Positions 11,849 through 38,274 of a DNA stretch of 64,000 nt are shown one piece after another (positions within the stretch are counted from its first letter, which is position 1; the number at the start of each line of letters is the position of its first letter). The DNA is taken from contig NC_019738.1 in the NCBI RefSeq assembly GCF_000317515.1, positions 2,001,623 to 2,065,622 on the forward strand, read 5' to 3'. The notes beneath the pieces are model-generated. The model saw nothing but the letters and a program-made list of their open reading frames with translations, searched no databases and was not told the DNA's origin. The DNA comes from Allocoleopsis franciscana PCC 7113 (GTDB lineage Bacteria; Cyanobacteriota; Cyanobacteriia; Cyanobacteriales; Coleofasciculaceae). The position numbers were made by a program, and so were the translations under genes.

Positions 11849-11981
11849 ATTTAAATCCTCTGAATAAATTATTTTTCACTTTTTGTGTAGCACAAAAAAC
11901 ATCTATTAATTCCCTAATTCAACCGAATTCCAGGTAGTTTTATTAGAGAATATACCCGTGGAATGGAGGTATTTGTTTGAA

Positions 11982-18400: not shown

Positions 18401-21400
18401 TCCACCTGCTTTGAGGATACCCAAGAGTCCAATGACCATATCAAGCGATCGCTCTACGCAAATTCCTACCAGTACCTCTGGTTTTACACCTAGCTCTTGC
18501 AAATAATGGGCTAGCTGATTCGCCCTAGCGTTCAGTTCCCGGTAAGTCAACTGTTGGTTTTCAAAGACTACCGCTACAGCATCGGGCGTTCTCTCTACCT
18601 GCTCCTCAAATAGCTGATGAATACAGACATCTTTTGGATAATCGGCCTGAGTTTGATTCCATTCTCTCAACAACTTATGCTGCTGTGCTTCACTCAACAG
18701 GGGCAATTCAGCAACAGTTTGTTGGGGATTTTCCACAATGGCTGACAACAAGTTCTGGAAATGAGCCGCCATCCGCTCAATGGTTGACCCGTCAAACAAG
18801 TCACTGTTGTACTCCCATTCCCCCACCAATCCCTGGGAAGTTTCGGTGATTAACACTGTTAAATCAAACTTAGCAATTGTGCTTTCCCGCTCTAACTGAG
18901 TCAAAGTCACACCGGGTAATTCTACTTCACCCATCGGTGCGTTTTGCAACACAAACATCACTTGAAACAGGGGAGAATGACTCAAAGAGCGTTGCGGTTG
19001 CAAGACTTCTACTACCTGCTCAAAAGGCACATCCTGATGTTCATAGGCTTTGAGTGTGGTGTCCCTAACTTGTGCCAGTAAGTCTTTCATACTGGGATTA
19101 TCTTCAAAACGGGTTCTCAATACCAAAGTATTCACAAAAAAGCCAATCAAAGATTCAATTTCACGGCGATGGCGATTGGCTATAGGAGAACCAATTAAAA
19201 TATCTTCTTGACCACTGTAACGATAGAGTAAAGTAGCAAACGCCGCCAACAGGGTCATAAATAAAGTCGTCCCCGACTCCTGAGACAGAGTTTGCAACTT
19301 TTGGGTTAAATCAGTATCTAAAGTAAAACTTTGAGTCGTACCCCGGTAAGTTTGCACACTTGGACGAGGGCGGTCAGTGGGTAATTGTAACAAGTCTGGC
19401 GCACCCTGCAATTGTTGCTGCCAGTAATTGAGTTGCGTTTCTAGTACCTCGCCACACAACCATTGTCTTTGCCAAACGGCAAAGTCGGCATACTGGATTG
19501 GTAATTTTGCTAAAGGAGACGGCTCTCCCGTACAAAATGCTTGATATAAACTAGACAGTTCTTGGATAAATACTCCGATTGACCAACCATCAGCAACAAT
19601 GTGGTGCATCGTCAGTAACAATACAGATTCTGTTGCTGATAACTGCAACAAACTACACCTGATTAATGGTGCTATTTCCAAGTTAAACTCTGTAATGGCT
19701 TCAAGTTGTAGTTGTTGGTGTAGGACAGTTTCTCGTTCTGGTACTTCTAGTCGCTCTAAGTCCACCAGAGTTATGTTCAGGGTGGCTTCTGGATGAATTA
19801 CCTGTATGGGTGTGCCGTTAACAGTTTGGAAGCTCGTGCGTAGTACTTCGTGGCGGCGTAATATTTCTGATAAGGCTTGTTGTAGGGCATGAACATTTAA
19901 GTTACCAGTGATGCGGAGTGCCCCTGATAAGTTGTAAGTGGCACTTGACCCTTCCAGTTGGTTGAGGAACCACAGTCGCTGCTGGGCAAAGGACAGGGGT
20001 ATTTGTTCGCCCTCGGTTCTGGGTTGAATGGGGGGAAGACTTAATCCACTATTGGTAGTACGTAGTTGAGTTAATGTTTGCTCTAATTGAGCGACGGTGG
20101 GAGATTCAAAGACTGTCCGTAGTGGGATTTCTACGTCCCAGGCAACTCTGAGTCTCGAAATTAATTGGGTGGCTAGTAGAGAATGCCCTCCCAATTCAAA
20201 GAAGTTGTCGTGGATTCCTACATTTTGCACGCCGAGAACGGAAGCGAATATATTGGCTATTATTTCTTCACTTGGTGTGCGGGGTGCTACGCATTGATGT
20301 TCTCGGTTGATTTCTCCATCAGGTGCTGGTAGTGCTTTTCTATCTACTTTGCCGTTGGGTGTTAAGGGTAGGGTGTCTAAGGTAACAAAGACATTTGGCA
20401 CCATGTATTCGGGTAGCTTTGAAAAGAGGAATTCACGGAGTTGATTGTTGGTGAGTGATTCATCTCTAGTAACAATATAGGCAACTAAGCGTTGGTTACT
20501 AGCAATGTCCTCTGTGGCAATGACTACAGCTTGTTGGATTTGGGGGTGGGTGTTGAGGACTGCTTCAATTTCTCCGAGTTCGATGCGGAAGCCTCGAATC
20601 TTTACTTGATGGTCAATGCGACCGATAAATTCAATATTTCCATCTGGCAAATACCGACCTAAATCACCAGTTTTATACAACCTTTCCTGGGTTCGGGGAT
20701 GAATAATAAAACTAGCATTAGTCTTTTCTGGGTTTCGCCAGTAACCCTTAGCGAGTCCAATTCCCCCGATGTAAAGTTGTCCAGTCACCCACACTGGACA
20801 TGGCTCCAAAGCTTCATTCAGGACATAAAAATGTTGATGGCGCATTGGGCGACCGTAGGGAATGCTTTTCCAAGTTGGATCAACTTTTTCAATGGGATAG
20901 AGAATTGACCAGATAGAGGCTTCTGTCGCGCCGCCTAAACTAATGACCTGCACATCTTGAAACAAAGTCCGAATCTGGTCGGGTAAGCTTAGGGGTAGCC
21001 AATCTCCACTTAACATCACCAACCGCAAAGATTGAGGTAATAATTCTGAGCGATTAGCCGCATATTCCACCAGCATCTGCATCAAAGCTGGTACTGAATT
21101 CCAGATAGTGACCTGATGTTGTACGATTAATTGCGCCCAGTGGGCAGGGTCTTTTGTGGCATCGGCATCAGGAATGACAATGGTTCCTCCCGCTGCCAGG
21201 GTGCCAAAGATGTCATACACCGACAGGTCGAAACTCAGAGATGATAGGGCAAATACCCGGTCTTGGGGTTGAACGTTAAAGCGCTGGTTGATGTCGAGGA
21301 TGGTATTAACAGCACCTCGATGGTCAATCATGACTCCTTTTGGTTTGCCAGTTGAGCCAGAGGTGTAGATGACGTAAGCTAAATCCGACGGTTGTTGTAT

Positions 21401-23383
21401 CGACTCTAGAGGTGTGGAGGAACTAGGAGGTTCTACGGTGTCGATACAGAGGCGTGTGATATTTTCTGACCATTCTAAGGAGGTGTCGAGCCAAGATTGA
21501 GTGAGTATGCACTGCACTTGTGCTTCTTCTAATAGATGTTGCCGACGTTCGCTAGGGAGTCCGGGGTCAATCGGTACATAAGCAGCACCAGATGCGAGAA
21601 TGGCTAAGGCAGCGACGACTTGCTCCCAGCCTTTCTCCATGACAATTGCTACTAGTTGGTTGGGGCGAATACCTTGTTGTCGCAGTTGATGGGCGAGGTG
21701 ATTGGCGCGATCGCATAATTCCTGATAGGTTAGAGTGCGACTAGAGGTAACGACAGCAGCAAGCTTAGGATGCAAAGCGACTTGCTCAAAAAACAAGGTC
21801 TGGAGTAAGGCTCCTTCCGCAATGGGTGTCTCAGTGGCATTAATCGCGGCTATTTGCTTGAGCTGTGCTGAGGGCAACAGTTGCCGTGTTGTTGTTTGCC
21901 AAAGGTCTTCTTCATGTGCCAGACGATTCAGGAAGTCACAGTAAGCGGCAAACATATCATCCAGGAGTCCTGGAGGAAAGACTTCCTCAACAGCATCCCA
22001 ATCGAGAACCAGAGTACCTTCTCTTTCAGAAACCTGAAGGTCTAGATAAACCTGGGGTGTCTGGCTGAGAGCATAGACGAGTTTTCCTAACCGATCAATT
22101 GATGATAACGATTGTTCATTGGGTGCGTTACCAATTTGAGGTTTAGTTAACTTTTCTCGACTTAGGTTTTCTTGAGTTAGCCTGCTAGTAAAGACAACTG
22201 GCATTAGTGCCTCTGACTGACGCTTTTGCCTGCGAGCTAACTCCCGTAAAACTTTCACGCCACTAAAATAGCGGTAGTCAAAGTCTTGCCAAAGTTGCTT
22301 TTGAATACGTTGCGATCGCTGTGCAAAAGACTCCTGCTGTGAGTTGTCCACTGCTAGTAAATTCAATGATGTAAAGTCCCCAACAATCTGATTCACTTCG
22401 GGGTGCAGGGGTAGACGATTGAAAAGAGTCAGATTGATCGTAAATCTGGGACTTTTACTCCAAACGGTTAGGATTTCGGCAAAAGCAGCTAGCAATATTC
22501 CCGAAGCGGTCAAGTTTGCTTCAGTAGCTCTCCTCTTGAGACAATGCCAGGTATCTGGAGCTAATTTGCCACTGCGGCGCAGAAAACGGGGGTATTTGAC
22601 AGTTGCCGGACTTTTATCGAGGGGGAGTTCAGGAGAAGAGGGTAAGCTAGCCAGACGACTTTGCCAATATTCTTGTGCTTTCAGATAAAGTTGTGAATTT
22701 CGTAGGTCAATTTCAGCTAGGACGTAATCCCGAAATGAAAGTTCATAAGGAGCAAGATAAATATCCGGATTTTGGATTAAATCAGCTAGTTCCCCCAGCA
22801 AGATTTCAAAACTCCAACCGTCACCAATCAATACCTCTAAGCTGATATAAAGTCTGGCTTTACTCTTGTCTAACTTAGCAACTCGAATGTCAAATAAAGG
22901 CCAGGTGTCAGCAGGCAAGACTTGGTGGGACATTTGATTGCGAATTTCTGCTAACTGAGAAGCCACTAGTTCAGAACTTTTCCCACGCAAGTCCACCACC
23001 TTAATTTTGTACGGAGGTACCTGCTCCAAAATCTGCTGTTGCCCATCAGAGTTGATAATCATTCGCAACATCTCGTGATGGTCGATCAGTCGTTGCCAAG
23101 CTTTTTCAAATCTTTCTAGGTCTAAATCCGCCGTTTCAATCTCTAAATATCCATGACTTGATACATTACTTAACTCAAAAATACCACTACGACCAATCCA
23201 GTAAGCCTGCTGAACATCAGTGAGTGGGAATGGTTGGTATCGATCATCTGGATTGGGAACTATTGTGGGTAGTTCTTCGGTTTTGGACTTAACTTCACCA
23301 CGTAAACGCTTTTCAAGAAGTGCTTGTTTAGCAGGTGAAAATTTAGACTTAAGTTTGATAACTTCTTCTTCGGGTGATAACAT
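15413..23383 (-). CDS. Bimodular NRPS Cy-A(Cys-type)-PCP-C-A-PCP-E
   Basis: Cy motif FPLTDVQQAYWIGR and core EVLIGDGWS. A1 FDLSVYDIFGTLAAGG (Cys-type core). PCP1 FFELGGHSLLATQL. C MHHIVADGWS. A2 FSFDVSVWEF. PCP2 FFELGGDSILTIQ. C-terminal E domain LTPIQKWFF ... HHLVVDGVSW. Confidence 0.9.
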   Translation of the reverse strand: MLSPEEEVIKLKSKFSPAKQALLEKRLRGEVKSKTEELPTIVPNPDDRYQPFPLTDVQQAYWIGRSGIFELSNVSSHGYLEIETADLDLERFEKAWQRLIDHHEMLRMIINSDGQQQILEQVPPYKIKVVDLRGKSSELVASQLAEIRNQMSHQVLPADTWPLFDIRVAKLDKSKARLYISLEVLIGDGWSFEILLGELADLIQNPDIYLAPYELSFRDYVLAEIDLRNSQLYLKAQEYWQSRLASLPSSPELPLDKSPATVKYPRFLRRSGKLAPDTWHCLKRRATEANLTASGILLAAFAEILTVWSKSPRFTINLTLFNRLPLHPEVNQIVGDFTSLNLLAVDNSQQESFAQRSQRIQKQLWQDFDYRYFSGVKVLRELARRQKRQSEALMPVVFTSRLTQENLSREKLTKPQIGNAPNEQSLSSIDRLGKLVYALSQTPQVYLDLQVSEREGTLVLDWDAVEEVFPPGLLDDMFAAYCDFLNRLAHEEDLWQTTTRQLLPSAQLKQIAAINATETPIAEGALLQTLFFEQVALHPKLAAVVTSSRTLTYQELCDRANHLAHQLRQQGIRPNQLVAIVMEKGWEQVVAALAILASGAAYVPIDPGLPSERRQHLLEEAQVQCILTQSWLDTSLEWSENITRLCIDTVEPPSSSTPLESIQQPSDLAYVIYTSGSTGKPKGVMIDHRGAVNTILDINQRFNVQPQDRVFALSSLSFDLSVYDIFGTLAAGGTIVIPDADATKDPAHWAQLIVQHQVTIWNSVPALMQMLVEYAANRSELLPQSLRLVMLSGDWLPLSLPDQIRTLFQDVQVISLGGATEASIWSILYPIEKVDPTWKSIPYGRPMRHQHFYVLNEALEPCPVWVTGQLYIGGIGLAKGYWRNPEKTNASFIIHPRTQERLYKTGDLGRYLPDGNIEFIGRIDHQVKIRGFRIELGEIEAVLNTHPQIQQAVVIATEDIASNQRLVAYIVTRDESLTNNQLREFLFSKLPEYMVPNVFVTLDTLPLTPNGKVDRKALPAPDGEINREHQCVAPRTPSEEIIANIFASVLGVQNVGIHDNFFELGGHSLLATQLISRLRVAWDVEIPLRTVFESPTVAQLEQTLTQLRTTNSGLSLPPIQPRTEGEQIPLSFAQQRLWFLNQLEGSSATYNLSGALRITGNLNVHALQQALSEILRRHEVLRTSFQTVNGTPIQVIHPEATLNITLVDLERLEVPERETVLHQQLQLEAITEFNLEIAPLIRCSLLQLSATESVLLLTMHHIVADGWSIGVFIQELSSLYQAFCTGEPSPLAKLPIQYADFAVWQRQWLCGEVLETQLNYWQQQLQGAPDLLQLPTDRPRPSVQTYRGTTQSFTLDTDLTQKLQTLSQESGTTLFMTLLAAFATLLYRYSGQEDILIGSPIANRHRREIESLIGFFVNTLVLRTRFEDNPSMKDLLAQVRDTTLKAYEHQDVPFEQVVEVLQPQRSLSHSPLFQVMFVLQNAPMGEVELPGVTLTQLERESTIAKFDLTVLITETSQGLVGEWEYNSDLFDGSTIERMAAHFQNLLSAIVENPQQTVAELPLLSEAQQHKLLREWNQTQADYPKDVCIHQLFEEQVERTPDAVAVVFENQQLTYRELNARANQLAHYLQELGVKPEVLVGICVERSLDMVIGLLGILKAGGAYVPLDPTYPPERLAFMLEDAQVPVLLTQFQLLETLPTHQAKVFCLDTDGEMLANRSQENPDSGATTDNLAYVIYTSGSTGTPKGAMNTHQGICNRLVWMQETYQLTIGDRILQKTPFSFDVSVWEFFWPLMTGARLVVAKPGGHQDSAYLVKLIATEQITTLHFVPSMLQVFLEEPRLETCNGLKRVICSGEALPFELTQRFFARLDAELHNLYGPTEAAIDVTFWQCQRQSERQTVPIGRPIANTQIYILDSHLTPTPIGVPGELYIGGDGLARGYLNRPELTAEKFIPNPFGKAEGRRLYKTGDLARYLPNGEIEFLGRIDHQVKVRGFRIELGEIEAALNQHPAVRETVVLAQEKVQGDKRLIAYIVTEQQLAPSINDLRRFLKEKLPEYMVPSVFVQLEALPLTPNGKIDRKVLPAPDTVRPELDKAFVAPRTPVETTLVEIWSQVLGVEQVGIYDNFFELGGDSILTIQIVARANQAGLQLTPKQLFEYQNIADLAAVAVTKKVLLAEQGLVTGVVFLTPIQKWFFEKNLSDPHHFNQAVLLEVRQAIDLALLEQALQHLLLHHDVLRLRFEPIESGWQQVQSSPDVSVPLTRWDFSALAEAEQTLAIEATATELQASLNLSTGLLVRVGFFDLGVHQPSRLLIVIHHLVVDGVSWRILLEDLQTAYQQLSQGEQVQLPAKTTSFQQWSQKLGEYVRSTALQQELDYWRRQSRKPSIPLPVDFPGGENTMASVGCVSSTLSFSETQALLKEVPQIYNTQINDVLLTALVQAFAQWTGERTLLVNIEGHGREDIADDVDLSRTVGWFTTIFPVLLNLGEASNPGDALKKVKEQLRGIPNRGIGYGVLRYLSDDPEITEQLRTLPQAEVIFNYLGQFDQTLSESSLFGLTQESSGLARSLRGKRSHLLEIDGLVSQGQLQLKWSYNHKVHRRSTIETLAQGFVEALRSLIAHCQSPEAGGFTPSDFPLAQLGQDDLDAVLGMVEFEGGGAR

Positions 23384-23437: not shown

Positions 23438-24508
23438 CTAAGAAATAATCTTTACTTTCATATACTCAGGCCAAAGTTGAATTCGCGTTAGTTCATTTTC
23501 CATAACTACCAACTCGCCCCTCTTTTCAATTTCCTTGAAACCCGCAAACTTATAAGAGATATACATCATCCGATTGCGATTATTGGAAACGAACTCTGCA
23601 CACAGACGAACCTTATTTTCCTTAGCCAGCTTGATAATGTAGTTGAGCATCACTGTGCCGACACCCCTAGACATGACGCGGCAAGACATTAACAATAACT
23701 TAATCGTCCACAGGCTTTCTTGGCATTCCACAAGAGCTAGCCCAATTTTTCCATAACTTCCATATTTATCTTCCAAACTGGCAATTAGCAGTTTGTGCTG
23801 ATTCGATTGCCGAAACTGATTGAGTTCATCGTAGGAGTATGTATAGCCAGTTGTGTTAAGTTGGTTTGTTCGTACCGTTAATTCTTCAGCTCGCTGTAAA
23901 TCCTCTTCTTGAGCCGAAGAGATAGTGAAGTGCATATTGAGTGTAGCTAAGAATTCTTCTTGAGGGCCTACGAATTCTGACTCTACCTTCTGGCGTTTTA
24001 TATCGCTAAGATACATCAACCTTCTCTTTTTTGAATCCTCTGTAATAAAACGAGGATTCATTTCTGGCATATCAAGCAACTGCTCCAGAGTGGCGGCATT
24101 AATACAGAGAACTTCAGGCAGTGAAAAACTGACTTCTTCCAACTCAAATGGCTGATCGTCAACAAAAGCTATTGTATCTATACCGATGTTGATTGATTTA
24201 GCAATTTCCTGAATAGAGGAAGCCTTAGAATTCCAGTTGATTTGTGGATACAAAAAATACTCATGCAATCCCAGCTCCTCTAGTTTCGCCATTGCTTTGC
24301 CATACTCATTTTTGCTGGCAACGGATTGGAGTATTCCTCGACTGTCCAAGGTTTTGATGATACCGACTATATTGTCTTTTAAGGAAACGCGATCGTCCTC
24401 CAATAATACGCCATTCCATAGGGTATTATCCAAATCCCAAACTACACATTTAATCGTTTTTTGACTAACTAGATTAGTTTCTACTTTCTCTGAATTTAGA
24501 CTTACCAT
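23438..24508 (-). CDS. FkbH-like HAD-superfamily glyceryl-ACP-forming enzyme
   Basis: N-terminal HAD motif I WDLDNTLW. Length about 356 aa. C-terminal half carries a conserved Cys (LLLMSCRVMSRG). Co-located with acyl-dehydrogenase, ACP and 3-hydroxyacyl dehydrogenase, as in hydroxy/methoxymalonyl-ACP cassettes. Confidence 0.7.
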   Translation of the reverse strand: MVSLNSEKVETNLVSQKTIKCVVWDLDNTLWNGVLLEDDRVSLKDNIVGIIKTLDSRGILQSVASKNEYGKAMAKLEELGLHEYFLYPQINWNSKASSIQEIAKSINIGIDTIAFVDDQPFELEEVSFSLPEVLCINAATLEQLLDMPEMNPRFITEDSKKRRLMYLSDIKRQKVESEFVGPQEEFLATLNMHFTISSAQEEDLQRAEELTVRTNQLNTTGYTYSYDELNQFRQSNQHKLLIASLEDKYGSYGKIGLALVECQESLWTIKLLLMSCRVMSRGVGTVMLNYIIKLAKENKVRLCAEFVSNNRNRMMYISYKFAGFKEIEKRGELVVMENELTRIQLWPEYMKVKIIS

Positions 24509-24511
24509 TTG

Positions 24512-25696
24512 TCAAATCTTTGCCACTAATTCTTGAGATATTACAGGGCGAGTCGGTGGAAACAGATGTTCTTGGTAACCATACTCAGCGATGGTAATTT
24601 GTTGAATCTGGTTGCTACCTTCAATAATTTCCATGATTTTGGCGTCTCGCAAATACCGTTGAACAGAGTATTCACTACTACAACCATTACCGCCATGAAT
24701 TTGTACTGCATCATTTGCCGCTTTAGTTGCCGTTGTGGAGGCAAAATATTTGGCAATTGAAGTTTCCATAATTGATTTAGGAGCGCCAATATCTTTGAGG
24801 TAGCCTGCTTGATAACATAGCAGTCTCGCTGCTTTGACATTGACAAGCATCTCAGCAATCATTTGTCGAATTAATTGGTGTTCTTTGAGATAGACACCAA
24901 ATTGCTGGCGTTGACTCGTATATTGAATGCAAGCTTCTAAACAGGCTTGGGCAATACCTACACAACCCCAAGCTACGCTATATCTTCCATAATCCAGTGC
25001 AGAAGAAGCCACATGGGAAAAACCAAAACCCTGCCTACACACAAGGTTTTCCAACGGAATTTTACAATCATGCAGGTGCAGTTCTGCTAACATTGAAGCT
25101 CTCACACCTAACATCCCAAAAATGGGTTTGATTGTCAATCCTGGGCTATTTTTTTCGACTAAGAATGCTGATGGCTTACCTTCACACTGAGCAAAGACTA
25201 AAAAGACATCCGCAATTTGCCCATAAGTAATCCATTTTTTTTGCCCATTTAATACATAAAAATCTCCCGAACGTGTGGCTGTCGTCTCTATACTTTTGGC
25301 ATCGCTGCCGACGTTAGGTTCGCTCAATGCAAAAGCCGCAATGACTTCTCCAGATGCTAATTTAGGCAACCAATTTTCTTTTTGAAATTTGTTGCCCCAC
25401 TTGAGCAGAGCCTGAGATACCATATTATGAACTGTCAGCAAGCTCCTGAGTGAAGAACAGCCTCGTCCAATTTCTTCATTCAAAAGACCGTATGTAATTG
25501 CATCCATTCCACTGCCACCTTTATCTTTAGGTAAGGCAGCACCTAAATATCCTTGTTGAGCTAGTTTTTCAATGAGTTCTGGGGGCGTATGTTCTTTGCG
25601 ATCGCATCGATTTGCATAAGGAATTATTGCTTCGTCTACAAAAGCTTTGAATTCAGATCGAGCTTGGTTTTGCTGAGGAGTTAATTCTATTCGCAT
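24512..25696 (-). CDS. Acyl-CoA/acyl-ACP dehydrogenase (FAD; FkbI-like)
   Basis: ACAD signatures LSEPNVGSDA and YQAGYL. C-terminal catalytic region IMEIIEGSNQI. Confidence 0.85.
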   Translation of the reverse strand: MRIELTPQQNQARSEFKAFVDEAIIPYANRCDRKEHTPPELIEKLAQQGYLGAALPKDKGGSGMDAITYGLLNEEIGRGCSSLRSLLTVHNMVSQALLKWGNKFQKENWLPKLASGEVIAAFALSEPNVGSDAKSIETTATRSGDFYVLNGQKKWITYGQIADVFLVFAQCEGKPSAFLVEKNSPGLTIKPIFGMLGVRASMLAELHLHDCKIPLENLVCRQGFGFSHVASSALDYGRYSVAWGCVGIAQACLEACIQYTSQRQQFGVYLKEHQLIRQMIAEMLVNVKAARLLCYQAGYLKDIGAPKSIMETSIAKYFASTTATKAANDAVQIHGGNGCSSEYSVQRYLRDAKIMEIIEGSNQIQQITIAEYGYQEHLFPPTRPVISQELVAKI

Positions 25697-25767
25697 TTTA
25701 CACTTAAATCACAACAAAATCCATTCTTCTCTGTCCAGATCCCCGACTTCTTCAAGAAGTTTGGGAT

Positions 25768-26022
25768 CTAGATCGAGCCTATAGCTACATTTGTCTTAGA
25801 TTGGATCAACCGATTCATCGCTTCAATAGTTCTAAAGTTATCAAAATCGAGGTCTTCGTTTTCAATCGTGACATTAAACTCTTTTTCTAGAAATAGAACC
25901 AGTTGCATGGCAAACATCGAATTAACAAAACCTAGAGCAAAGATATCTTCATCATCTTGGAGTTGATGATTGCCGAAATACTGGGAAAGAAAATTTTTGA
26001 TTTTAGATTTAGCTGCTTGCAT
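25768..26022 (-). CDS. Discrete acyl carrier protein (FkbJ-like)
   Basis: 84 aa, acidic. Carrier-protein serine motif ALGFVNSMFAMQLV in a four-helix-sized protein. Confidence 0.65.
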   Translation of the reverse strand: MQAAKSKIKNFLSQYFGNHQLQDDEDIFALGFVNSMFAMQLVLFLEKEFNVTIENEDLDFDNFRTIEAMNRLIQSKTNVAIGSI

Positions 26023-26062
26023 GGTGAGTTATCTTGTGTGAATTACTGCAAATTTAAGAAGT

Positions 26063-26917
26063 TCAGGTATAAGCATAAAAACCTTGCCCGCTTTTTCGAC
26101 CATACAACCCTGCATCTACCATTTTCTTGAGCAAAGGGCAGGGTCTATATTTACTGTCGTTAAAGCTTTCGTATAGAACTTCAATAGAGAAGAGAATCGT
26201 ATCTAATCCGATTAAATCAGCGGTTTCAAGAGGTCCCATTTTGTGACCAAAGCAGGTTTTGAAGATTCTATCTACATCGGAGGCTGAAGCAACTTGGTCT
26301 TGCAAAAGAAAAATTGCTTCATTAATAGTTAACATCAGTACACGATTAGAAACAAAACCGGGAGAATCATTGACTAGGATGCATTCTTTGCCCATCTGAG
26401 CCAACATTTTTTTTGCGGTTTCAATAGTTTCCTCAGAGGTATGATAGCCGCGAATCGTTTCCACCATTGATTTCATTGGTACAGGATTCATGAAATGCAT
26501 ACCAATGACTTTAGGGGCACGCTGAGTTACTGAAGCAATGCGAGTAATGGGAATAGCAGATGTATTGGCGGCAAAGACTGATTCTTTAGGACAAATGGTA
26601 TCAAGTTGAGAGTAAACCTGGTTTTTAATATTCCATTTTTCTGTCGTGTTTTCAATAACGAATTCCGCAGATTCTAGAAATTGATAATTAGTTGTAAATT
26701 TAATTCGCTGGAGGACTTCTTTGGGATTTTCGGTTTTCTCGCTTTTATTGAAAAAACCTTGAAAACGAATATTTTTACTAATTTCCTGTTTCGCCTGCTC
26801 CAAAATCTTATCGGAAATATCAACAAGAATCACTTGATGTCCGGTTTGGGCAAGGTTTTGTGCTACCCCGATACCCATAACACCAGCTCCGACTACACCA
26901 ACTGTTTGAATGTTCAT
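26063..26917 (-). CDS. 3-hydroxyacyl-CoA (ACP) dehydrogenase, NAD-binding (FkbK-like)
   Basis: N-terminal Rossmann VGVVGAGVMGIGVA. HBD-family C-terminus GRKSGQGFY. Confidence 0.85.
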   Translation of the reverse strand: MNIQTVGVVGAGVMGIGVAQNLAQTGHQVILVDISDKILEQAKQEISKNIRFQGFFNKSEKTENPKEVLQRIKFTTNYQFLESAEFVIENTTEKWNIKNQVYSQLDTICPKESVFAANTSAIPITRIASVTQRAPKVIGMHFMNPVPMKSMVETIRGYHTSEETIETAKKMLAQMGKECILVNDSPGFVSNRVLMLTINEAIFLLQDQVASASDVDRIFKTCFGHKMGPLETADLIGLDTILFSIEVLYESFNDSKYRPCPLLKKMVDAGLYGRKSGQGFYAYT

Positions 26918-27005
26918 TTTCAGATCTACCTCATGTAGAGTTTTTGGACATGGGTGTATAGTAATGCTGCCAAAATTGTATTGTGATGTATTGATTTTGT
27001 TTCTT

Positions 27006-30000
27006 TTATTTGCTGGTAATTTCTCTCATAAGCTTCTGAGCATCTTCTTCAGTTATTTCTGCTATTTCCCTTATGATTATTTCTTCTATAAACAGAGCCA
27101 ACTCCGCTACAGATGGTTTCTGAAACAAGCTAATTAAAGGTATTTCTACTTGTAGTTCTTGGCGAATTATTAGAAACATTTTGGTTGCTATTAAAGAGTT
27201 TCCGCCCAATTCAAAAAAGTTGTCATGAATACCTACTTTATCGATTCCCAAAAACTCTTGGAATAATTGAGCAATCCGGTGTTCAATTTCACTGCTAGGA
27301 ACAACATAGGTAGTCCGCAGGTTTGAGCGCGGATACAGAGAGGGGGTTGCCTCACTGCCCTTTACTTTTTCAGGATACTGGCTAGACTTATGCTTAATAA
27401 GCTTATCGACTTCTGTTTCTATATCACTCTGCCAGATAGCAACCTGAGGAATTAGACGATTAGATAAAAGACGTTTAAAAATTTCCACAACTTGTTCATG
27501 AAAAACCTCAATTTTTCTTGGGTCTGGGGCTATACCTCTAAGGGCTAAGAAGGCATCTTCATAGTGAAACCAATTTACACTACACCAATTACTATTACCA
27601 AGCTGGTTCTGCCTGTGAACCCAGGCATCCATGAAAAGATTAGCCGCAGTATAGGAAGCAAACCCTGTTCCTCCAAAGATAGCTCCCATTGAGGACATCA
27701 ATATGCAAAAATCAATTTCTCTGTCTTGCAAAACTTTATCTAACGTATAAAGTCCATACACCTTAGCTTGAAAGTGCCAGTTAGATTCGGTGTAGCTTGT
27801 ATCCAAAATTGAATTAATGATCTTATCTTGATCGAGAATTGCAGCTGCATGGATCACCCCATTAAGCTTGCCAAATCGCTTTTCAGTCTGCGTAATAACT
27901 CTTCGCATGTGGATTTCATTCGCCACGTCTGCGCTGATGACGAGAACATCAGCACCTAAATCTTCCAATTCTTGGATTTTCCTGATTCTGGTGCTTACTC
28001 GATTTTGTTGCTCATGATTTGCCAGCCACTGCTCCCATTCTTCTTTAGGAGGTAATGCTGAACGTCCTGTCAATACAAGCTTGGCTTGTACAGTTTGCAC
28101 TAGGTATTTAGCTAGTGTCAAACCAAATCCTCCTAATCCGCCTGTTATTAAATACACGCCCCCTTGACGCAATTGTTTGGGAGACTCAACTGGATTATCG
28201 AATCTTACAGGCTCAAATACTTGCCGCCAACGCTGATTAGCCCTATAGGCGATTACCAAATCAGATGACTTTCCAGTGATTTCTGCTAAGAGTTGGTCTA
28301 TTAGTTTATCCTTCGACCAACTTCCTAATTTGGGCAGTACTAAATCAACACTTTGGCAGGTGATATTACTATACTCTTGGGGAATGACCTTACACAGTCC
28401 CAACAAGGTTATCTTTTCCGGATATGACACATCAGTGCTCTCTACAGCGTACATACTATTGGACAACACCCAAAGTCGAAGAGGAATAGTAATCCGTTGC
28501 TTACTGAGAGCCTGCGTAAGAAAGAGCAGACTGTAGAAACCTAAGTGCTGAGCTTCTTCAAATAGCTCTACTCCTGATGGTATTTGTTCGTGAGAAGTGA
28601 TACTCCACGAGTGAATCACAGTACTGGGAATTTTGTCCAAAAAATCAAGTTTTTTGAGTAAGGAATGGTAGTCCTCTTTCCTTTGAGGATTGATAGTGTA
28701 TTCCCATTCACTAACTTGGTCAAATTGTTCTCCTACCCTTACACTGATGACATCTTGACCCTCGTTTTCTATTCTTGCCGCAATTTGAGAACCTATTCCG
28801 CATTCATCGACAAATACCAGCCAGCAGGACTTTTGCTTTGCCAAGCTACCCACTTCAAGCGGAACAGGCGGCATCGACTGTTTCCAGACTGGAATGTAGA
28901 ACCAGTCTGCTATGTCCAGCTTTTTCTCTAAGGAGGCTTGATCTATGGACACAGTCTGTCCCGCTTGGGGAGAGTCAACCCAGTAGCGCTGGCGCTCAAA
29001 GGGATAAGTCGGTAATGGGACACGTTCGCGGTACTCCTCGGCATAGAACTTCGACCAATCGATTTGAATTCCCGATAGCCACAACTGACCCAAAGCGTTG
29101 AGCAAAAACGCTAAATCCGACTGTTGAGTATAGGCATCGCGAAGAGAGGGTAGCACAACTTTATCTGCCACCTGCTCGCTTTCTAAACACTGTAATGCCA
29201 AACTACTCAATGTCTGTCCTGGCCCCACTTCCAACAAAATCGGTTGCTGTTGTTTCCATAACTCATTCACCCCATCGGCAAATAGCACAGGTTGGCATAG
29301 ATGCTGCGTCCAGTAGCTGGGGTCTGTGGCTTGGGCTGCTGTTATCCAAGTTCCCGTAACATTGGATATGTAAGGGATTTTCGGGGGATTGAGACTGACC
29401 GTTGTTACCAGTTCAGTGAAGGAAGAGGCAATAGGTTCCATCATCTGGGAATGGAAGGCATGAGATGTCTGCAAACGTCGGCAAGCCAAGCCCTTTTCAG
29501 TTAACTGAGAAGCCAATTCATCCACAGCATCTGGGGTTCCGGCAATTACGCAGAGTTTTGAGCCATTCACCGCAGACAAAGACAGTTTCTCTCCTAGGAG
29601 AGGACGTACCTCTTCCTCTGAGAGGGGAACCGCCAACATTGCTCCACCGGGCAACTCTTGAATCATTTGCGCTCTTTTTGTCACAAGAGTCAGAGCATCT
29701 TCCAGAGACAATACTCCCGCCAAAGTTGCCGCGACATACTCACCGATGCTGTAGCCAATCATCGCCGTTGGACGAATTCCCCACGACATCCATAACTGGG
29801 CGAGGGCATACTCGATAACAAAAATTGCCGGTTGAGTAAGATGGGTTTGATTCAGTTTTTGAGTGGCTTCATCGATCGGTTCTGCGTTACGACCAAGCAT
29901 TTTGCGTAGATCGATGCCCGATTGAGGCACACCTGCGATCGCCTGGGTTGGTTGGGAACTTGCCGAAGCCTCGTTCTTCGTGGGATACAGTACATCTCTC

Positions 30001-31688
30001 AGATCGAGACCAAGGAGAGGCTTGAGCAACTCGCAACAGCGATCAATTGTTTTTTGAAACGTTGGCTCAATTTGGTAAAGCTCCCAAGCCATATTAATGT
30101 AATGAGTTCCCAGTCCAGTAAACATGAAGGCGATGGGGCGATCGCTCGTCTCCTGAAGACCGGAGAGAACCCGTTTGGGGTCTTGCAGTGCGACTAGAGC
30201 ATCTTCAATATCTTTGCAAACAACCGTTCGCCGATGCTCAAATTCTCGACGACCCACTTGTAGGGTGTAAGCCACATCAGCTAGGTTAAGCTCAGGATGT
30301 TGTTTCAGGTGTTCAACCAAGTTGCTTGTCGCCGTCTCCAAAGCTGAACTCGTCTTGGCAGATAACATCAGCACTTGCCAAGGGCGGGAGGTTGCAGACG
30401 GTTGCACAGTTGGCGCTTCTTCGAGAATGACATGGGCATTGGTTCCACCAAAACCAAAGGAACTTACTCCAGCGCGACGGGGAGTACCGTTAGCTTTCCA
30501 CTCTGTAAGCTTAGTGTTGACATAAAACGGGCTATTCTCAAAATCTATCTGAGGATTGGGTGTCTCGAAGTTAAGCGTCGGCGGTAGCCACTTTTTGTCG
30601 AGAGCTAAAACTGTTTTAATCAAGCCTGCGATCCCCGCCGCAGCATCCAAATGCCCAATATTGGTTTTCACTGAGCCAATTGCACAGTAACCTTTTTGAT
30701 CTGTTGAAAATGCTTGTTTTAACCCAGCAATTTCAATCGGATCGCCCAGAGACGTTCCGGTTCCATGTGTTTCTATATAAGTAATTGTTTCTGGCTCAAC
30801 TTCAGCCATGATTTGAGCGGCTCGAATGACTCTCGCTTGTGCCTCTTCACTAGGGGCTGTGTAGCTAACTTTTACAGCACCATCATTATTGATGGCTGAA
30901 CCTTTAATAACAGCATAAATATAATCTCGATCTGCGATCGCATCTTCCAGTCGCTTGAGGACAACCACACCAATTCCGTTGCCGCCAATTGTCCCATTGG
31001 CACGAGCATCAAACGCTTTGCAATGTCCATCGGGAGAAATCCCTTCCGGACACAGCGTTACTTCGTTTTGGGGAGCTTTAACTGAAACCCCAGCCGCCAA
31101 AGCCATGTCGCATTCACCACTGAGCAAACTTTGACAGGCGAAATGAACGGCAACTAACGAACTGGAACAAGCTGTTCCAACACTAACACTCGGCCCTTTG
31201 AGATTTAATTTGTAAGAAACTCGGGTGGATGCGTAATCTTTATCATAAGCAAGTAGAGTGGGGAAATATCCTAGTGTTTCTCTCACCTTGTTGGGGAAAA
31301 GATTATAAAGCAAATATGTGCTTGTCCCTACTCCCGCATACACTCCTATCGGTCTTTCTTCTTTTTCAGAGTCATAGCCAGCATTTTCCAGAGCCTCCCA
31401 AGCACACTCTAAAAATAGACGATGCTGTGGATCGATAATCTCCGCTTCTCTGGGATTAAACCCAAAAAACGAGGCATCAAATAGCTCAATATCTTCTAGT
31501 AATGCAGCCGCTTTTATTTCTTTATTAAAACCATTAGCTTCAGGATTTTTTCCCGAATCTGGAAAAACTGAAATAGACTCTTTTCCATTGAACAAATTTT
31601 CCCAAAACTGAGCAATATTACCACTGCCTGGAAAACGTCCGGAAACACCTATTATTGCAATTTCTAATCCGTTATGTTTGAAGTTCAT
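27006..31688 (-). CDS. Type I PKS module KS-AT-KR-ACP
   Basis: KS: GTACSSSLVAVHFA, ETHGTGT, NIGHLDAAAG. AT: GYSIGEY plus HAFHS, with an insertion relative to the other PKS. KR: TGGLGGFGLTLAKYL, LTGRSA, SYTAAN. ACP: LGGNSLIATKMF. Confidence 0.9.
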   Translation of the reverse strand: MNFKHNGLEIAIIGVSGRFPGSGNIAQFWENLFNGKESISVFPDSGKNPEANGFNKEIKAAALLEDIELFDASFFGFNPREAEIIDPQHRLFLECAWEALENAGYDSEKEERPIGVYAGVGTSTYLLYNLFPNKVRETLGYFPTLLAYDKDYASTRVSYKLNLKGPSVSVGTACSSSLVAVHFACQSLLSGECDMALAAGVSVKAPQNEVTLCPEGISPDGHCKAFDARANGTIGGNGIGVVVLKRLEDAIADRDYIYAVIKGSAINNDGAVKVSYTAPSEEAQARVIRAAQIMAEVEPETITYIETHGTGTSLGDPIEIAGLKQAFSTDQKGYCAIGSVKTNIGHLDAAAGIAGLIKTVLALDKKWLPPTLNFETPNPQIDFENSPFYVNTKLTEWKANGTPRRAGVSSFGFGGTNAHVILEEAPTVQPSATSRPWQVLMLSAKTSSALETATSNLVEHLKQHPELNLADVAYTLQVGRREFEHRRTVVCKDIEDALVALQDPKRVLSGLQETSDRPIAFMFTGLGTHYINMAWELYQIEPTFQKTIDRCCELLKPLLGLDLRDVLYPTKNEASASSQPTQAIAGVPQSGIDLRKMLGRNAEPIDEATQKLNQTHLTQPAIFVIEYALAQLWMSWGIRPTAMIGYSIGEYVAATLAGVLSLEDALTLVTKRAQMIQELPGGAMLAVPLSEEEVRPLLGEKLSLSAVNGSKLCVIAGTPDAVDELASQLTEKGLACRRLQTSHAFHSQMMEPIASSFTELVTTVSLNPPKIPYISNVTGTWITAAQATDPSYWTQHLCQPVLFADGVNELWKQQQPILLEVGPGQTLSSLALQCLESEQVADKVVLPSLRDAYTQQSDLAFLLNALGQLWLSGIQIDWSKFYAEEYRERVPLPTYPFERQRYWVDSPQAGQTVSIDQASLEKKLDIADWFYIPVWKQSMPPVPLEVGSLAKQKSCWLVFVDECGIGSQIAARIENEGQDVISVRVGEQFDQVSEWEYTINPQRKEDYHSLLKKLDFLDKIPSTVIHSWSITSHEQIPSGVELFEEAQHLGFYSLLFLTQALSKQRITIPLRLWVLSNSMYAVESTDVSYPEKITLLGLCKVIPQEYSNITCQSVDLVLPKLGSWSKDKLIDQLLAEITGKSSDLVIAYRANQRWRQVFEPVRFDNPVESPKQLRQGGVYLITGGLGGFGLTLAKYLVQTVQAKLVLTGRSALPPKEEWEQWLANHEQQNRVSTRIRKIQELEDLGADVLVISADVANEIHMRRVITQTEKRFGKLNGVIHAAAILDQDKIINSILDTSYTESNWHFQAKVYGLYTLDKVLQDREIDFCILMSSMGAIFGGTGFASYTAANLFMDAWVHRQNQLGNSNWCSVNWFHYEDAFLALRGIAPDPRKIEVFHEQVVEIFKRLLSNRLIPQVAIWQSDIETEVDKLIKHKSSQYPEKVKGSEATPSLYPRSNLRTTYVVPSSEIEHRIAQLFQEFLGIDKVGIHDNFFELGGNSLIATKMFLIIRQELQVEIPLISLFQKPSVAELALFIEEIIIREIAEITEEDAQKLMREITSK

Positions 31689-31892: not shown

Positions 31893-34800
31893 TTAGCGAG
31901 TCGTTAGTCTTGATTTTTGAAATCTTTGCTTCAGGCGAGTTTTTCCCTGTTGTATTTTCTGCTCCAAGTTAGTATCTGGCTGTTGTAAAGAAGGAGCTTG
32001 GGAAAAAACTAAGTGCTTAGCTAAAGCACGAATGCTTGAGTAATTAAACAAGTCAATCAATGAGATATATTGTACCTCATCTGGCAATTCTTCTCGAATC
32101 TTGTTGTAAATTTTTATAATGAGTAGTGAATTTACACCCAAGTCAAAAAAGTTATCATTAACTCCTACTTTCTCTATCTGCATCACATATTGGACAACAG
32201 CAGCAATCGTTTTTTCGATTTCATTTTTTGGGGGTACATAAGAAACGTTTAATTCCTGAAGAAAAGCGTCTGGAGTAGGAAGCGCACGGCGGTCTACTTT
32301 ACCATTTGCTGACAGTGGAAAAGCCTCTAGAAAGACAAAGGCTGATGGCAGCATATACTCAGGCAGCTTCCCGCGCAGAAAACGACGCAATTCATCTGTG
32401 GGAATTTCCTGGTGGGGAACCACATAAGCGACCAGCCGCTTATGGCTGGGCTGTTCACCCGCTACAGTAACGACTGCTTTACCCACAGCAGGATGCTGCA
32501 CCAGCACCGCTTCAATTTCTCCTAACTCAATGCGGTATCCACCAATCTTGACTTGAAAATCTTCTCGACCCAGAAATTCAATCGTTCCATCGGGAAGAAA
32601 ACGACCCAAATCACCTGTCCGGTACAATCGCTCACCTGTACGAGGATGGGTAATAAAACTAGCCGCCGTTTTAGCTTCTTGCCGCCAGTAACCCAACGCC
32701 AGCCCCATGCCTCCGATGTAAAGCTGCCCTGGAACCCAAACAGGACAGGGTTCTAGCGCATGATTGAATACATAGAAACGCTGATTTGTCATCGGACGAC
32801 CATAGGGAATACTCTTCCAAGCTGGGTCAACCGATTGAATCGGATAGAGAATAGACCAGATAGACGCCTCAGTAGCACCCCCCAAACTAATCACTTGAAT
32901 ATCCGGGACAAGGGCTTTAATTTGAGTCGGTAAAGTTAGGGGGAGCCAATCTCCGCTCAACAAGACCAACCGCAGACTGGCTAAAGCTTCAGAGTTATTC
33001 TGGGCATAGTCCACCATCATCTGCATTAAAGCTGGCACCGAGTTCCAGATAGTGATGTTGTGCTGTACTATCAACTCTTCCCAGTGGCTCGGTTCCCGCT
33101 CAAAGGATGCTTTGGGGATGACAATCGTTCCCCCTGCTGCTAGCGTGCCGAAAATATCGTAAACCGACAGGTCAAAACTGAGGGAAGAGAGCGCCAACAC
33201 GCGGTCAGTTGGACTCACGCCAAAGCGCTGATTGATATCAATAATGGTGTTGACGGCACCCCGATGGTTAATCATCACCCCTTTGGGAACACCTGTAGAA
33301 CCGGAGGTGTAGATGAGGTAAGCTAAATCCTCTGGTGTCTGGACTGGCTCTAAAGGCTGGTTACTTTCTTCTGCTAAGTCTTCACTGTCTATACACAACC
33401 GATGAACTGACTGAGGCCAAGACAGTTTCTCATTGAGCCAAGATTGAGTGAGAACAATATTAACTTCACTGTTTCTTAGCAGGTACGAAAAACGTTCTTC
33501 AGGGAGTCCGGGATCGATGGGGACATAGGCAGCACCAGAGGCTAAAATGCCCATAATTGCAACAATTTGCTCGCATCCCTTTTCCATCACTACGGCTACC
33601 AGTTGGTTGGGAGTTGCCCCCAATTTCCGCAGTCGATGAGCAACTTGATTGGAGCGATCGCATAATTCCTGATAGGTTAGGCTACGCTCCGGCGAAATGA
33701 TAGCCAGCTCATTTCTTCGACGCTGTACTTGTTCGGTAAATAACTCATGCAGCAGCGTATCAGGAACGGGTGCGTCAGTAGCATTGATAGCATCCCGTTG
33801 CGCTAACTGTGCCGGAGGTATAAGATTTCGCCTTGTCTCAACCCAAACTGAATCGGAGGTAGCTAGCTGCTGGAGAAAGCGGCAATACGCCTCGAACATA
33901 TCCTGAATTAAATCTTCAGGGAAGAGTTCCTCGACTACATCCCAATTAAATGTCAGCGTTCCCTTTTCCTCCCATACTTGAACATCCATCCACGCCTGAG
34001 ATGCTTGGCTGATGCCATAGACTAACTCTCCAAAATGGCTGAAGGTTAAGGTTTCCTGTCCTAGCGAACTGAAGCCTAAAGTACTGGTGAAGATGACAGG
34101 TATGGTGCTGATAGCCGTCCCTTTCCTGCGAGCTAGTTCCCGCATCGCTTGCACACCATTAAAGTAGCGGTGTTCTAAATCCTGCCATAGTTGTTTCTGG
34201 AGGCGGATGGCGCGTTGGCTAAACGACTCAGAGGCTGAGTTGTCCACTGCCAGGAGGGTTGCAGAGGTAAAGCCTCCCAAGATTTCATTGACTTGGGGAT
34301 GCAGGGGCAACCGATTAAACAGGGCAAGATTGAGAGTAAATTGGGGACTCTTGCTCCAAACGGTGATGATTTCGGCAAAAGCGGCAAGTAAGACGCCAGA
34401 AGGTGTCAAACCAACTTGAGCAGCACGTTGCTTTAACTGCTGCCATTGAGTGCGATCTAAGCCACTCTCATAACGCTTGGAGCGATACTGTTTAAGTTGA
34501 TGGGGACTCTTAGCCAGGGGTAAGTCGGGTGCTGGGGGAAGAGTGTCTATACGGCTTAACCAATAATCGCGCGATCGCTGATACAGTTGGGTCTCTTGTA
34601 AACGTTGCTCTGCTAAAGCATAATCCCGGAATGAAAGTTCAAGCGGTGGCAGTGCAACTTCAGGATTTTGATACAGTTGAAACCACTGTTCAAATAGACG
34701 AAACAGACTCCAGGCATCAAAAATTAGCAAGTCGTAGCTGATGTGCAATCGAACGCGATCTGCCGTAGGCGGCAGCGCTTCGCTATCGCCCTTACGGGCG

Positions 34801-38010: not shown

Positions 38011-38274
38011 ATGGATACTTCAAAAGCGATGGATACTCTCAAAGCAATACTTGCTGACTTAGGTATTCCCCAAGAATCGCTGCACAATGACACACTACTG
38101 CACGAGGATTTACAACTTGATTCCACTGAAATAGTAGAAATTGCCCTAGGACTGAAACGCCAACTAGGGGTAAGCGTGAAGCTGGAAGGTCGGCAGGATA
38201 TGACACTGGCTCAAGTCTGCAACAAAGTCGAAGCGGCGCTGCTGGCCAACTCCAACTCTAACCATGTCTCTTGA
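38011..38274 (+). CDS. Free-standing aryl/acyl carrier protein
   Basis: MDTSKAMDTLKAILADLG... with LQLDSTEIVEIALGL (DS phosphopantetheine site). In frame inside track ORF 37924..38274. Stop overlaps the start of the following PPTase. Confidence 0.6.
   Translation: MDTSKAMDTLKAILADLGIPQESLHNDTLLHEDLQLDSTEIVEIALGLKRQLGVSVKLEGRQDMTLAQVCNKVEAALLANSNSNHVS

Follow-up and report, generated by a model that had tools for sequence, protein, structure and literature searches.

The 64,000-nucleotide stretch of the Allocoleopsis franciscana PCC 7113 (formerly Microcoleus sp. PCC 7113) genome analyzed here, hereafter the window, carries on its minus strand one long co-linear nonribosomal peptide synthetase (NRPS)-polyketide synthase (PKS) line, as judged from Pfam domains. 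Between the module PKS1 and the following NRPS2 of this line lies a cassette of four genes, which encode an FkbH-type protein, an acyl-CoA dehydrogenase (ACAD)-like flavoprotein, a discrete acyl carrier protein (ACP), and a homolog of 3-hydroxyacyl-CoA dehydrogenase (HADH). With a probability of about 0.7, the cassette makes an unmethylated hydroxymalonyl-ACP that is loaded onto PKS1 by the acyltransferase (AT) domain of this module (AT1), giving a vicinal diol. Hydroxymalonyl-ACP is a rare extender unit that is biochemically established for zwittermicin. The pathway itself is known from that compound, and the less usual elements would be a cyanobacterial setting resembling the salicyl-thiazoline metallophore lines and an AT clade signature behind the HAFH motif. 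We infer the enzymatic steps, the substrate of AT1, and the product from homology and genomic context.

An original prediction made from the letters of the window had placed FkbH, ACAD, ACP, and HADH genes at 23438-26917, and open reading frames (ORFs) with the expected domains were found at exactly these positions (Table 1); the E-values rule out chance domain matches. The genes lie on one strand with gaps of 54 bp (NRPS2-FkbH), 3 bp (FkbH-ACAD), 71 bp (ACAD-ACP), 40 bp (ACP-HADH), and 88 bp (HADH-PKS1). FkbH has the predicted WDLDNTLW at residues 23-30 and contains the motifs KCVVWDLDNTLW (nt 24416-24451), VASKN, FVDDQP, and LLLMSCRVMSRG (nt 23663-23698). C21, D24, D26, T28, D117/D118, and C276 (in MSCRV) were invariant or nearly so among 81 sequences, and the same residues aligned with ZmaN of the zwittermicin pathway in a gap-free core alignment, in which KCVVWDLDxTxW, VASKN, DDQPFELEEV, and LLLMSCRVMSRGVGT are common to both proteins. 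The protein thus retains the DxDxT phosphatase motif, the Asp pair, and both cysteines, including the conserved one of the C-terminal domain, rather than lacking the catalytic Cys and HAD residues; which of the cysteines is catalytic we presume from work on OzmB. A PDB sequence search with FkbH gave only a remote HAD domain (3slr) and was uninformative. The phosphopantetheine attachment residue of the ACP, Ser35 in VNSMFAMQ (nt 25912-25926), was invariant in 70 homologs, and the motif VNS(L/M)FA(M/I)Q is common to this ACP, ZmaD, and ZmaH. ACAD is 44.1% identical to ZmaI and matches FkbI (1r2j) with an E-value of 1.4e-56, and its catalytic-base region IIEGSNQ aligns with those of ZmaE and ZmaI.

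The ZmaN, ZmaD, ZmaE, and ZmaG enzymes are the source of hydroxymalonyl-ACP in zwittermicin (Park 2014, PMC4207774), and the established route proceeds from 1,3-bisphosphoglycerate through glyceryl-ACP and 2-hydroxy-3-oxopropionyl-ACP to hydroxymalonyl-ACP (PMC4207774, PMC7489565). For comparison, the zwittermicin A cluster (locus L088) was located by a tblastn search of plasmids on Bacillus thuringiensis pIS56-233. Only zmaJ is named in this record, and the other zma names were assigned by gene order; the motifs and residue numbers of ZmaF and ZmaK-AT agree with Table 2 of Park 2014 (PMC4207774). By analogy with this route, FkbH of the window would dephosphorylate 1,3-bisphosphoglycerate and load the glyceryl group on the discrete 84-aa ACP, the NAD-dependent HADH homolog would oxidize C3 of glyceryl-ACP to the aldehyde 2-hydroxy-3-oxopropionyl-ACP, and the ACAD-like flavoprotein would oxidize the aldehyde to the carboxylate, giving (2R)-hydroxymalonyl-ACP. 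With no O-methyltransferase step, the unit would stay hydroxylated. AT1 would then move the hydroxymalonyl group from the 84-aa ACP to the ACP of PKS1, where the ketosynthase (KS) domain would condense it with the salicyl-thiazolinyl chain supplied by NRPS1. Reduction of the ketone by the ketoreductase (KR) domain would follow, yielding a 2,3-dihydroxy unit, CH(OH)-CH(OH), before the next module of NRPS2, with a heterocyclization (Cy)-like domain and a predicted Cys specificity, continues the chain. The free α-hydroxyl is a plausible extra oxygen ligand for a metal. Pfam and a motif check of the megasynthase genes found a terminal thioesterase (TE) and no orphan condensation (C) domain, and because the line is co-linear and has no such orphan domain, the AT is the only obvious entry point for the unit.

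AT1 departs from ordinary ATs at several positions. GYSIG replaces GHSxG and GLGTHY replaces GQGxQ, and the spacing from the G-x-G motif to the active-site Ser is 124 residues in AT1 versus 93 in the AT of PKS2 (AT2), approximately 28 to 31 residues more; the GYSIG motif and the insertion that had been noticed in this AT are therefore both confirmed. AT2 reads FMFSGQGAQY, GHSIG, and HAFH, falls among the GHSIG ATs rather than in the GYS clade, and is presumed to be specific for malonyl-CoA. The insertion of AT1 is absent from AT2, ZmaA-AT, and all GHS/GQG ATs compared. Among 47 members of the clade, its residues D593, L594, R595, M597, L598, and R600 show 89-98% conservation, and DLRxMLGR is nearly invariant in a 55-sequence alignment across several phyla. 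A structural model of AT1 had a predicted local distance difference test (pLDDT) score of 88.7 and a predicted template modeling (pTM) score of 0.89, and its top fold match was ZmaA-AT (4qbu) with template modeling (TM) scores of 0.85/0.91. Most of the insertion (residues 573-597) is below a pLDDT of 50 in this model and hence predicted to be flexible. AT1 looks catalytically active, because it keeps the catalytic Ser647 and His746 as well as the carboxylate-binding Arg672 and is modeled confidently. ZmaA-AT was the best PDB match for both ATs of the window, by sequence and by fold, and was rejected as a discriminator between them.

Both ZmaA-AT and ZmaF are active, biochemically characterized ATs for ACP-linked extender units and have GYSxG, and the malonyl-specific ZmaK-AT (GHSIG), FabD, and DEBS ATs have GHSxG (Park 2014, PMC4207774). 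The two motifs are FLFSGNGSQY and GYSFG in ZmaA-AT, FMFPGVGSHY and GYSLG in ZmaF, and FMFTGLGTHY and GYSIG in AT1; the Gln of GQGxQ is lost in all three and kept (GQGxQY) in AT2 and all GHS ATs of the related loci described below. The loss of this Gln may mark ATs for ACP-linked extenders, which is our own reading of the sequences and not a published criterion. Where the ordinary ATs in these loci have Q, H, G, M, and R, members of the AT1 clade have L526, Y646, A673, I676, and C798, respectively, and they also carry the inserted DLRxMLxR. The original prediction had read HAFHS in both PKS ATs and noted that both look specific for malonyl-CoA. The motif is indeed present in both, but this reading does not hold for AT1 if the unit is hydroxymalonyl-ACP, since HAFH would then not be predictive in this clade; the apparent paradox of a hydroxymalonyl cassette beside two malonyl ATs arose because only the HAFH motif was read.

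To survey related loci, one genome per species was scanned; the 80 loci obtained, whose FkbH proteins are 60-87% identical, belong to Cyanobacteria, Chloroflexota, Acidobacteriota, Myxococcota, Desulfobacterota, Paenibacillus, and further groups. Nearly all of them keep the order HADH-ACP-ACAD-FkbH, and a full cassette, with HADH as its first gene, is present in 65. Nearly all cyanobacterial loci have a PKS1-homologous gene immediately upstream of the cassette, and the AT of this PKS always shows G(L/V)G, GYS(I/L/V)G, HAFH, and a spacing of 111-125 instead of 93. An AT was found within 10 kb in 53 of the 65 loci, and a GYSxG AT in 44; the AT nearest the cassette is of the GYS type in 43 of the 53, usually in a gene that ends 3-150 bp before HADH. 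The remaining ATs in these loci read GHS/GQG and have a spacing of 93, and AT2 resembles the non-adjacent ATs of 19 other loci. Together with the identity to the Zma enzymes, the gene order, and the GYSxG motif, this count favors the earlier suggestion that unmethylated hydroxymalonyl-ACP is fed to the neighboring AT. In two loci from Desulfobacterota metagenome-assembled genomes (MAGs; L040 and L042), an AMP-ligase-like gene lies between ACAD and FkbH, and the neighboring AT is an ordinary GHSVG type, a variant that departs from the GYS-AT pattern.

The reverse test, in which ATs were chosen by AT similarity alone, included three GYS-type ATs. Two of them, one from Actinomadura and one from a Chloroflexota MAG, have HADH-ACP-ACAD-FkbH directly after the AT gene. 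Another match, P0324, belongs to a GHSLG subtype and has no cassette nearby. A search with the AT domain only retrieved many free-standing and integrated ATs in which GLG and the insertion always occur together, mostly with GYS, one subgroup having GHSLG. Salicylate-primed clusters, chosen via their ketosynthase III (KSIII)-ACP protein, provided a contrast. Their first PKS is of the GYS/GLG type where the cassette follows (the window, L001, L003, L005, and L006/L087); in L084 an enoylreductase (ER)-ACP gene follows the first PKS instead, and the AT is GHS/GQG. The first PKS of Tolypothrix NIES-4075, followed by an ER-ACP gene, has GHSIG/GQG and a spacing of 93. Over 6.6 kb, a Nostoc locus with a GYS/GLG AT shares 93.7% identity with a cassette-carrying locus. 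These results indicate that the GYS AT type is strongly, though not absolutely, coupled to the cassette.

Four marks define the clade of AT1: G(L/V)G for GQG, GYSxG for GHSxG, the flexible DLRxMLGR insertion, and Cys for a conserved Arg near the C-terminus. Members occur in Cyanobacteria, Chloroflexota, Acidobacteriota, Myxococcota, Actinomycetota, and other phyla, are conserved across phyla at 45-70% identity, and include free-standing ATs beside the cassette. The genes around the PKS and cassette differ widely among loci, and the five genes therefore behave as a portable unit. We put it at a little under an even chance that AT1 belongs to a large multi-phylum clade dedicated to hydroxymalonyl- or methoxymalonyl-ACP and, because it retains HAFH, systematically mis-called malonyl-CoA specific, that the insertion is an ACP-docking element, and that the AT-bearing PKS and the cassette are mobile together. 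The G+C content at third codon positions (GC3) is a mosaic over 23438-31688, with values of 0.31-0.41 in the cassette genes versus 0.40-0.45 in the flanking megasynthase genes and, within PKS1, 0.485 in the segment of linker and AT versus 0.333 in the KS. This mosaic hints that the AT and the cassette were recombined into the line.

That the window encodes no O-methyltransferase had also been predicted. The ORFs of at least 150 aa in the 64-kb window include no methyltransferase, and none was found in the adjoining 10 kb on the left; the small ORFs next to the cluster encode AcpS-type phosphopantetheinyl transferases (PPTases). The order HADH-ACP-ACAD-FkbH is that of BafAI-AIV in bafilomycin, where the O-methyltransferase BafAV comes fifth, and here the slot after FkbH is filled by the start of NRPS2. 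The nearest orthologous clusters (L001, L003, and L005) have KS-AT-KR-ACP proteins of approximately 1530-1580 aa with no methyltransferase (MT) domain. In other related loci, an FkbM-family methyltransferase gene comes right after FkbH (L046, L048, and L080), a small class I methyltransferase gene precedes HADH (L026), or the cassette is followed by a fused AT-ACP-FkbM protein (L019, Nostoc sp., at L019:11096-15071; L029, Nostocales HT-58-2) whose AT belongs to the GYS/GLG/insertion clade. Because methylation in relatives is encoded in or beside the cassette or the PKS, its absence at the window locus is meaningful. The PKS1 orthologs of L002 (1639-7572), L007 (1699-7590), and about ten other loci are KS-AT-MT-KR-ACP proteins of approximately 1950 aa. 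In both L019 and L029, the AT-ACP-FkbM gene precedes an ordinary second free AT (GHSIG, HAPH), which looks like a two-trans-AT arrangement with one AT per extender type.

Several observations weigh against the proposed route through hydroxymalonyl-ACP and AT1. Its motif at the YASH position is HAFH, the classical malonyl-CoA signature, as in nearly all clade members, and the corresponding motifs are GAAH in ZmaA-AT and GPFH in ZmaF (Park 2014, PMC4207774). Hydrophobic residues at the RXR position (MXW/MCM/IAI; MCM in ZmaA and IAI in ZmaF) were proposed to serve carrier recognition (Park 2014, PMC4207774); the triplet of AT1 is A-C-R, hydrophobic at its first position but with the Arg retained and thus hydrophobic only in part, and that of AT2 is E-C-R. 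Overall, AT1 is no closer to ZmaA-AT than AT2 is (252.7 versus 276.2 bits), and a rough neighbor-joining tree, built from a set without the characterized methoxymalonyl ATs FkbA, OzmH, and Asm AT3 and without SorC and HliQ, groups the GYS-type ATs apart from the GHSIG ATs and leaves ZmaA outside both. Ordinary short-chain acyl-CoA dehydrogenases outscore FkbI as matches of ACAD, some non-cyanobacterial cassettes adjoin GHS ATs, and the third GYS-type AT of the reverse test, a Polyangium AT-ACP protein, has no cassette within 8 kb. The HAFHS shared by both ATs, the missing affinity of AT1 for ZmaA-AT beyond that of AT2, and the Polyangium protein would fit a plain malonyl-CoA AT in PKS1, with hydroxymalonyl-ACP used by another acceptor (PKS2 or an enzyme outside the cluster) or with a silent cassette. 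This explanation appears unlikely. It leaves the Q-to-L and H-to-Y changes at near-universal AT positions and the conserved insertion hard to explain, AT2 is fully ordinary in its GQG, GHSIG, and spacing of 93, and the cassette is tied to the GYS-type AT gene in most AT-holding loci whatever flanks them.

A methoxymalonyl unit, with an O-methyltransferase gene at some other place in the 7.5-Mb genome or with the hydroxyl methylated after assembly, would also contradict the proposed structure. The methyltransferases that accompany the cassette in L046, L048, L080, L019, L029, L026, L002, and L007 speak for it, and our inspection covered the window plus 10 kb on its left side. However, where methylation is encoded it sits in or beside the cassette or PKS, here an NRPS starts 54 bp after FkbH with no methyltransferase ORF of at least 150 aa in 64 kb, and the PKSs of L001, L003, and L005 lack an MT as well, so that we regard this as rather less likely than a plain malonyl-CoA AT. 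Delivery of a glycerate-derived unit by a non-AT route, which had been offered as an alternative, found no support and seems very improbable. The unit would enter through a C or Cy domain or a KSIII-like protein in the manner of tetronates or FkbH starters, and tetronate pathways combine FkbH with an ACP and a FabH-like protein (PMC7489565), for which the cluster has a KSIII-ACP gene. Yet the two dehydrogenases, whose pair is missing from tetronate systems, are present and conserved, pointing to a malonate-level product, and the line has a terminal TE, likewise missing there, and no orphan C domain. The KSIII-ACP protein was rejected as a tetronate-type user of glyceryl-ACP: it is an ACP fusion and a member of a salicylate starter set, which is also seen in the fatuamide cluster and in clusters where no cassette is in view. 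Similarly improbable is a catalytically dead AT1 in a module loaded in trans by an unspecified AT. GHSxG is not intact in AT1, some predictors call the motif absent, and the first PKS AT of anachelin was once suggested to be inactive (Calteau 2014, PMC4247773). Against this stand the retained Ser647, His746, and Arg672, the activity of ZmaA-AT and ZmaF with GYSxG, the absence of a trans-AT gene from the window, and the conservation of the clade across phyla, with free-standing members by the cassette, which is unlike a decaying domain. Taken together, the four alternatives hold a distinct minority of the probability, and hydroxymalonyl-ACP loaded by AT1 remains the preferred reading.

The features of the line are listed in Table 1.

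Table 1. Features of the Allocoleopsis franciscana PCC 7113 line in window coordinates
Feature	Position	Strand	Evidence and remarks
FkbH (ZmaN type), 356 aa	23438-24508	-	TIGR01686 297.9 bits (cut-off 146.65), HAD-IIIC; 58.6% identity to ZmaN
ACAD flavoprotein (FkbI/ZmaE type), 394 aa	24512-25696	-	All three Acyl-CoA_dh Pfam domains; 46.2% identity to ZmaE
Discrete ACP (FkbJ/ZmaD type), 84 aa	25768-26022	-	PP-binding; 46.6% identity to ZmaD
HADH (FkbK/ZmaG type), 284 aa	26063-26917	-	3HCDH_N 186 bits, 3HCDH 115 bits; 51.4% identity to ZmaG over 280 aa
Four-gene cassette	23438-26917	-	Between PKS1 and NRPS2
PKS1, KS-AT-KR-ACP	27006-31688	-	Pfam; proposed hydroxymalonyl-accepting module
PKS1 acceptor ACP	27090-27278	-	GGNSL present
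PKS1 KR	27564-28160	-	Rossmann motif and Tyr present
PKS1 AT (AT1), aa 519-880	29049-30134	-	FMFTG-L526-GTHY, G-Y646-S647-IG, R672, H743-AFH746; clade-specific A673, I676, C798
AT1 insertion, approximately 28 aa, PKS1 aa 573-600	29889-29972	-	Ends (G)(I/L)DLRxMLGR, just before QTHLTQ (RVDVVQ equivalent)
PKS1 KS	30399-31664	-	KS Cys and His motifs present
NRPS1, TubC_N docking-Cy-A(Cys)-PCP	31893-35411	-	Pfam; Cy motif DLLIFDAWS; code DLYNLSLIWK
KSIII-ACP fusion	35621-37180	-	Pfam; salicylate starter set, outside cassette
NRPS2, Cy-like-A(Cys)-PCP-C-A(Ser)-PCP-E	15413-23383	-	Pfam; motifs HHIVADG, HHLVVDG, EGHGRE
C-A-PCP NRPS	11982-15416	-	Pfam
Pyridoxal phosphate (PLP)-dependent group II decarboxylase	10178-11848	-	Pfam
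PKS2, KS-AT-KR-ACP, ordinary AT	5432-10102	-	Pfam; internal comparator
C-A-PCP-TE NRPS	1208-5320	-	Pfam; terminal TE
A, adenylation domain; E, epimerization domain; PCP, peptidyl carrier protein.

The salicylate starter set (35621-42026) comprises the KSIII-ACP fusion and, as divergent genes, a benzoate-CoA-ligase-like (aryl) AMP ligase, a chorismate-binding enzyme resembling salicylate synthases, and two AcpS-like PPTases (38264-38683 and 41595-42026); next come genes for a TonB-dependent receptor with an AMIN domain and for a periplasmic binding protein. The starter set recurs in L082-L087, including clusters without the cassette in view, and corresponds to FatB-FatG/FatH of fatuamide. From this organization, NRPS1 probably makes a salicyl-thiazoline chain that is passed to PKS1, and NRPS2 would take the chain from PKS1. 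As a whole, the line resembles salicyl-thiazoline metallophore pathways such as those of yersiniabactin and the lusichelins. The adenylation codes were read by hand as DLYNLSLIWK in NRPS1 and DLYNMSLIWK and DVWHISLIDK in NRPS2; on the basis of published codes, we take the first two A domains to be specific for Cys, the third for Ser, and the last two of the line to be of the V-D β-amino-acid type. These last two (VDWVVSLADK and VDWVISLANK, in 10178-15416 and 1208-5320) have V-D at code positions 235/236, a β-amino-acid pattern, and the PLP-dependent decarboxylase encoded between their modules could supply β-alanine from aspartate. The first, Cy-like domain of NRPS2 reads ExxxxDxxS (LEVLIGDGWS; aa 182-191, nt 22811-22840) versus the Cy signature DxxxxDxxS, and the second cysteine may or may not be cyclized by it. 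The KR of PKS2 (6014-6604) has a degenerate nucleotide-binding motif, GGLESLG, and a Pfam KR score of 68.7 bits versus 143.3 for PKS1, and may be inactive. A scan of the operon for promoters and terminators gave the same counts as in shuffled sequence.

Identity with known clusters was considered for several products. The anachelin cluster was rejected: its predicted starter genes resemble those of the window, and the module order differs. The fabrubactin cluster was rejected as well, because the α-hydroxy acids of fabrubactin come from a monooxygenase. The lusichelin, leptochelin, and fatuamide lines are salicylate-primed, and the papers on them mention neither FkbH, hydroxymalonate, nor the two dehydrogenases.

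At the left edge of the window, a P450 gene crosses the border, and the 10 kb inspected beyond it contain genes for a MatE transporter/exporter and a type II thioesterase, followed by unrelated genes. The region 42169-49570, in which the TonB-dependent receptor and the binding protein lie near a fusion of CbiC (precorrin-8X methylmutase) with MerR and a P-type ATPase, is an unusual metal-homeostasis neighborhood for the cluster. An orange carotenoid protein gene is also present in the window, in keeping with a cyanobacterial source, and FkbH is 100% identical to a protein of Allocoleopsis franciscana. A low-GC island (51773-57499) contains an ORF of 921 aa (GC 0.30), small ORFs, and a phage-type integrase gene (56111-57286) next to tRNA-Leu (57418-57499), and looks like an integrated mobile element with an uncharacterized cargo protein; the 921-aa protein had no Pfam or PADLOC match.

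If AT1 loads hydroxymalonyl-ACP, the PCC 7113 product would bear its vicinal diol between two rings derived from cysteine, and among salicyl-thiazoline metallophores such a ligand arrangement would be new. The rule that HAFH means malonate would then fail for a recognizable, widespread class of ATs, and the signature of GLG, GYSxG, and DLRxMLGR could correct genome-mining predictions across many phyla; the conserved insertion would offer a handle on how ATs recognize ACP-bound versus CoA-bound substrates, an open question in PKS engineering. Should the more tentative reading of the whole clade also be true, the structures predicted for hundreds of NRPS-PKS clusters, cyanobacterial and other, lack an oxygen, and a mobile five-gene unit installs a diol or α-hydroxy ligand in various lines, including a family of cyanobacterial metallophores. 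In a literature search of incomplete coverage, hydroxymalonate was reported for neither cyanobacterial products nor siderophores, and there was nothing relevant on FkbH or hydroxymalonyl units in connection with cyanobacteria, siderophores, or PCC 7113; the AT signature may be described elsewhere.

Among known systems, the yersiniabactin, lusichelin, fatuamide, leptochelin, and anachelin lines share the starter logic of the window, consisting of a salicylate synthase, an aryl ligase with a carrier, a Cy-A(Cys)-PCP module, and a PKS module, and a TonB receptor, a binding protein, and an exporter are common to them as well. Neither an FkbH cassette nor a hydroxymalonate unit has been reported for any of these clusters, and the lusichelin ATs are described as GHSVG/HAFH. 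The methoxymalonyl operons (FK520 fkbG-K, bafilomycin BafAI-AV, and tetromadurin Mad11-15) have the same gene order and the same chemistry up to hydroxymalonyl-ACP, but their fifth gene, for an FkbG/FkbM-type O-methyltransferase, is missing in or beside the operon of the window. Actinomycete methoxymalonyl ATs typically keep GHSxG. SorC of soraphen has an AT-ACP-MT architecture. The same architecture is known for HliQ of haliangicin (PMC4768178), and the AT-ACP-FkbM protein of L019 and L029 resembles this type as far as descriptions of architecture go. In SorC and HliQ, the AT belongs to a free AT-ACP-O-methyltransferase protein, whereas AT1 is an integral cis-AT in a KS-AT-KR-ACP module with no methyltransferase.

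The closest parallel is zwittermicin, which uses the same four enzyme types, 46-59% identical to the proteins of the window, and no O-methyltransferase. Its receiving AT has a Tyr before the catalytic Ser like AT1, and subsequent ketone reduction within the receiving module produces a diol. By contrast, the zma genes are scattered, with zmaD-E, zmaG, and zmaN separated by other genes, whereas the operon of the window is contiguous. ZmaA-AT has GAAH and MCM and no insertion, AT1 has HAFH, ACR, and the DLRxMLGR insertion of approximately 28 aa, and the two show no specific overall kinship. The products also differ, zwittermicin being an aminopolyol antibiotic and the line of PCC 7113 being of the salicyl-thiazoline, metallophore-like type.

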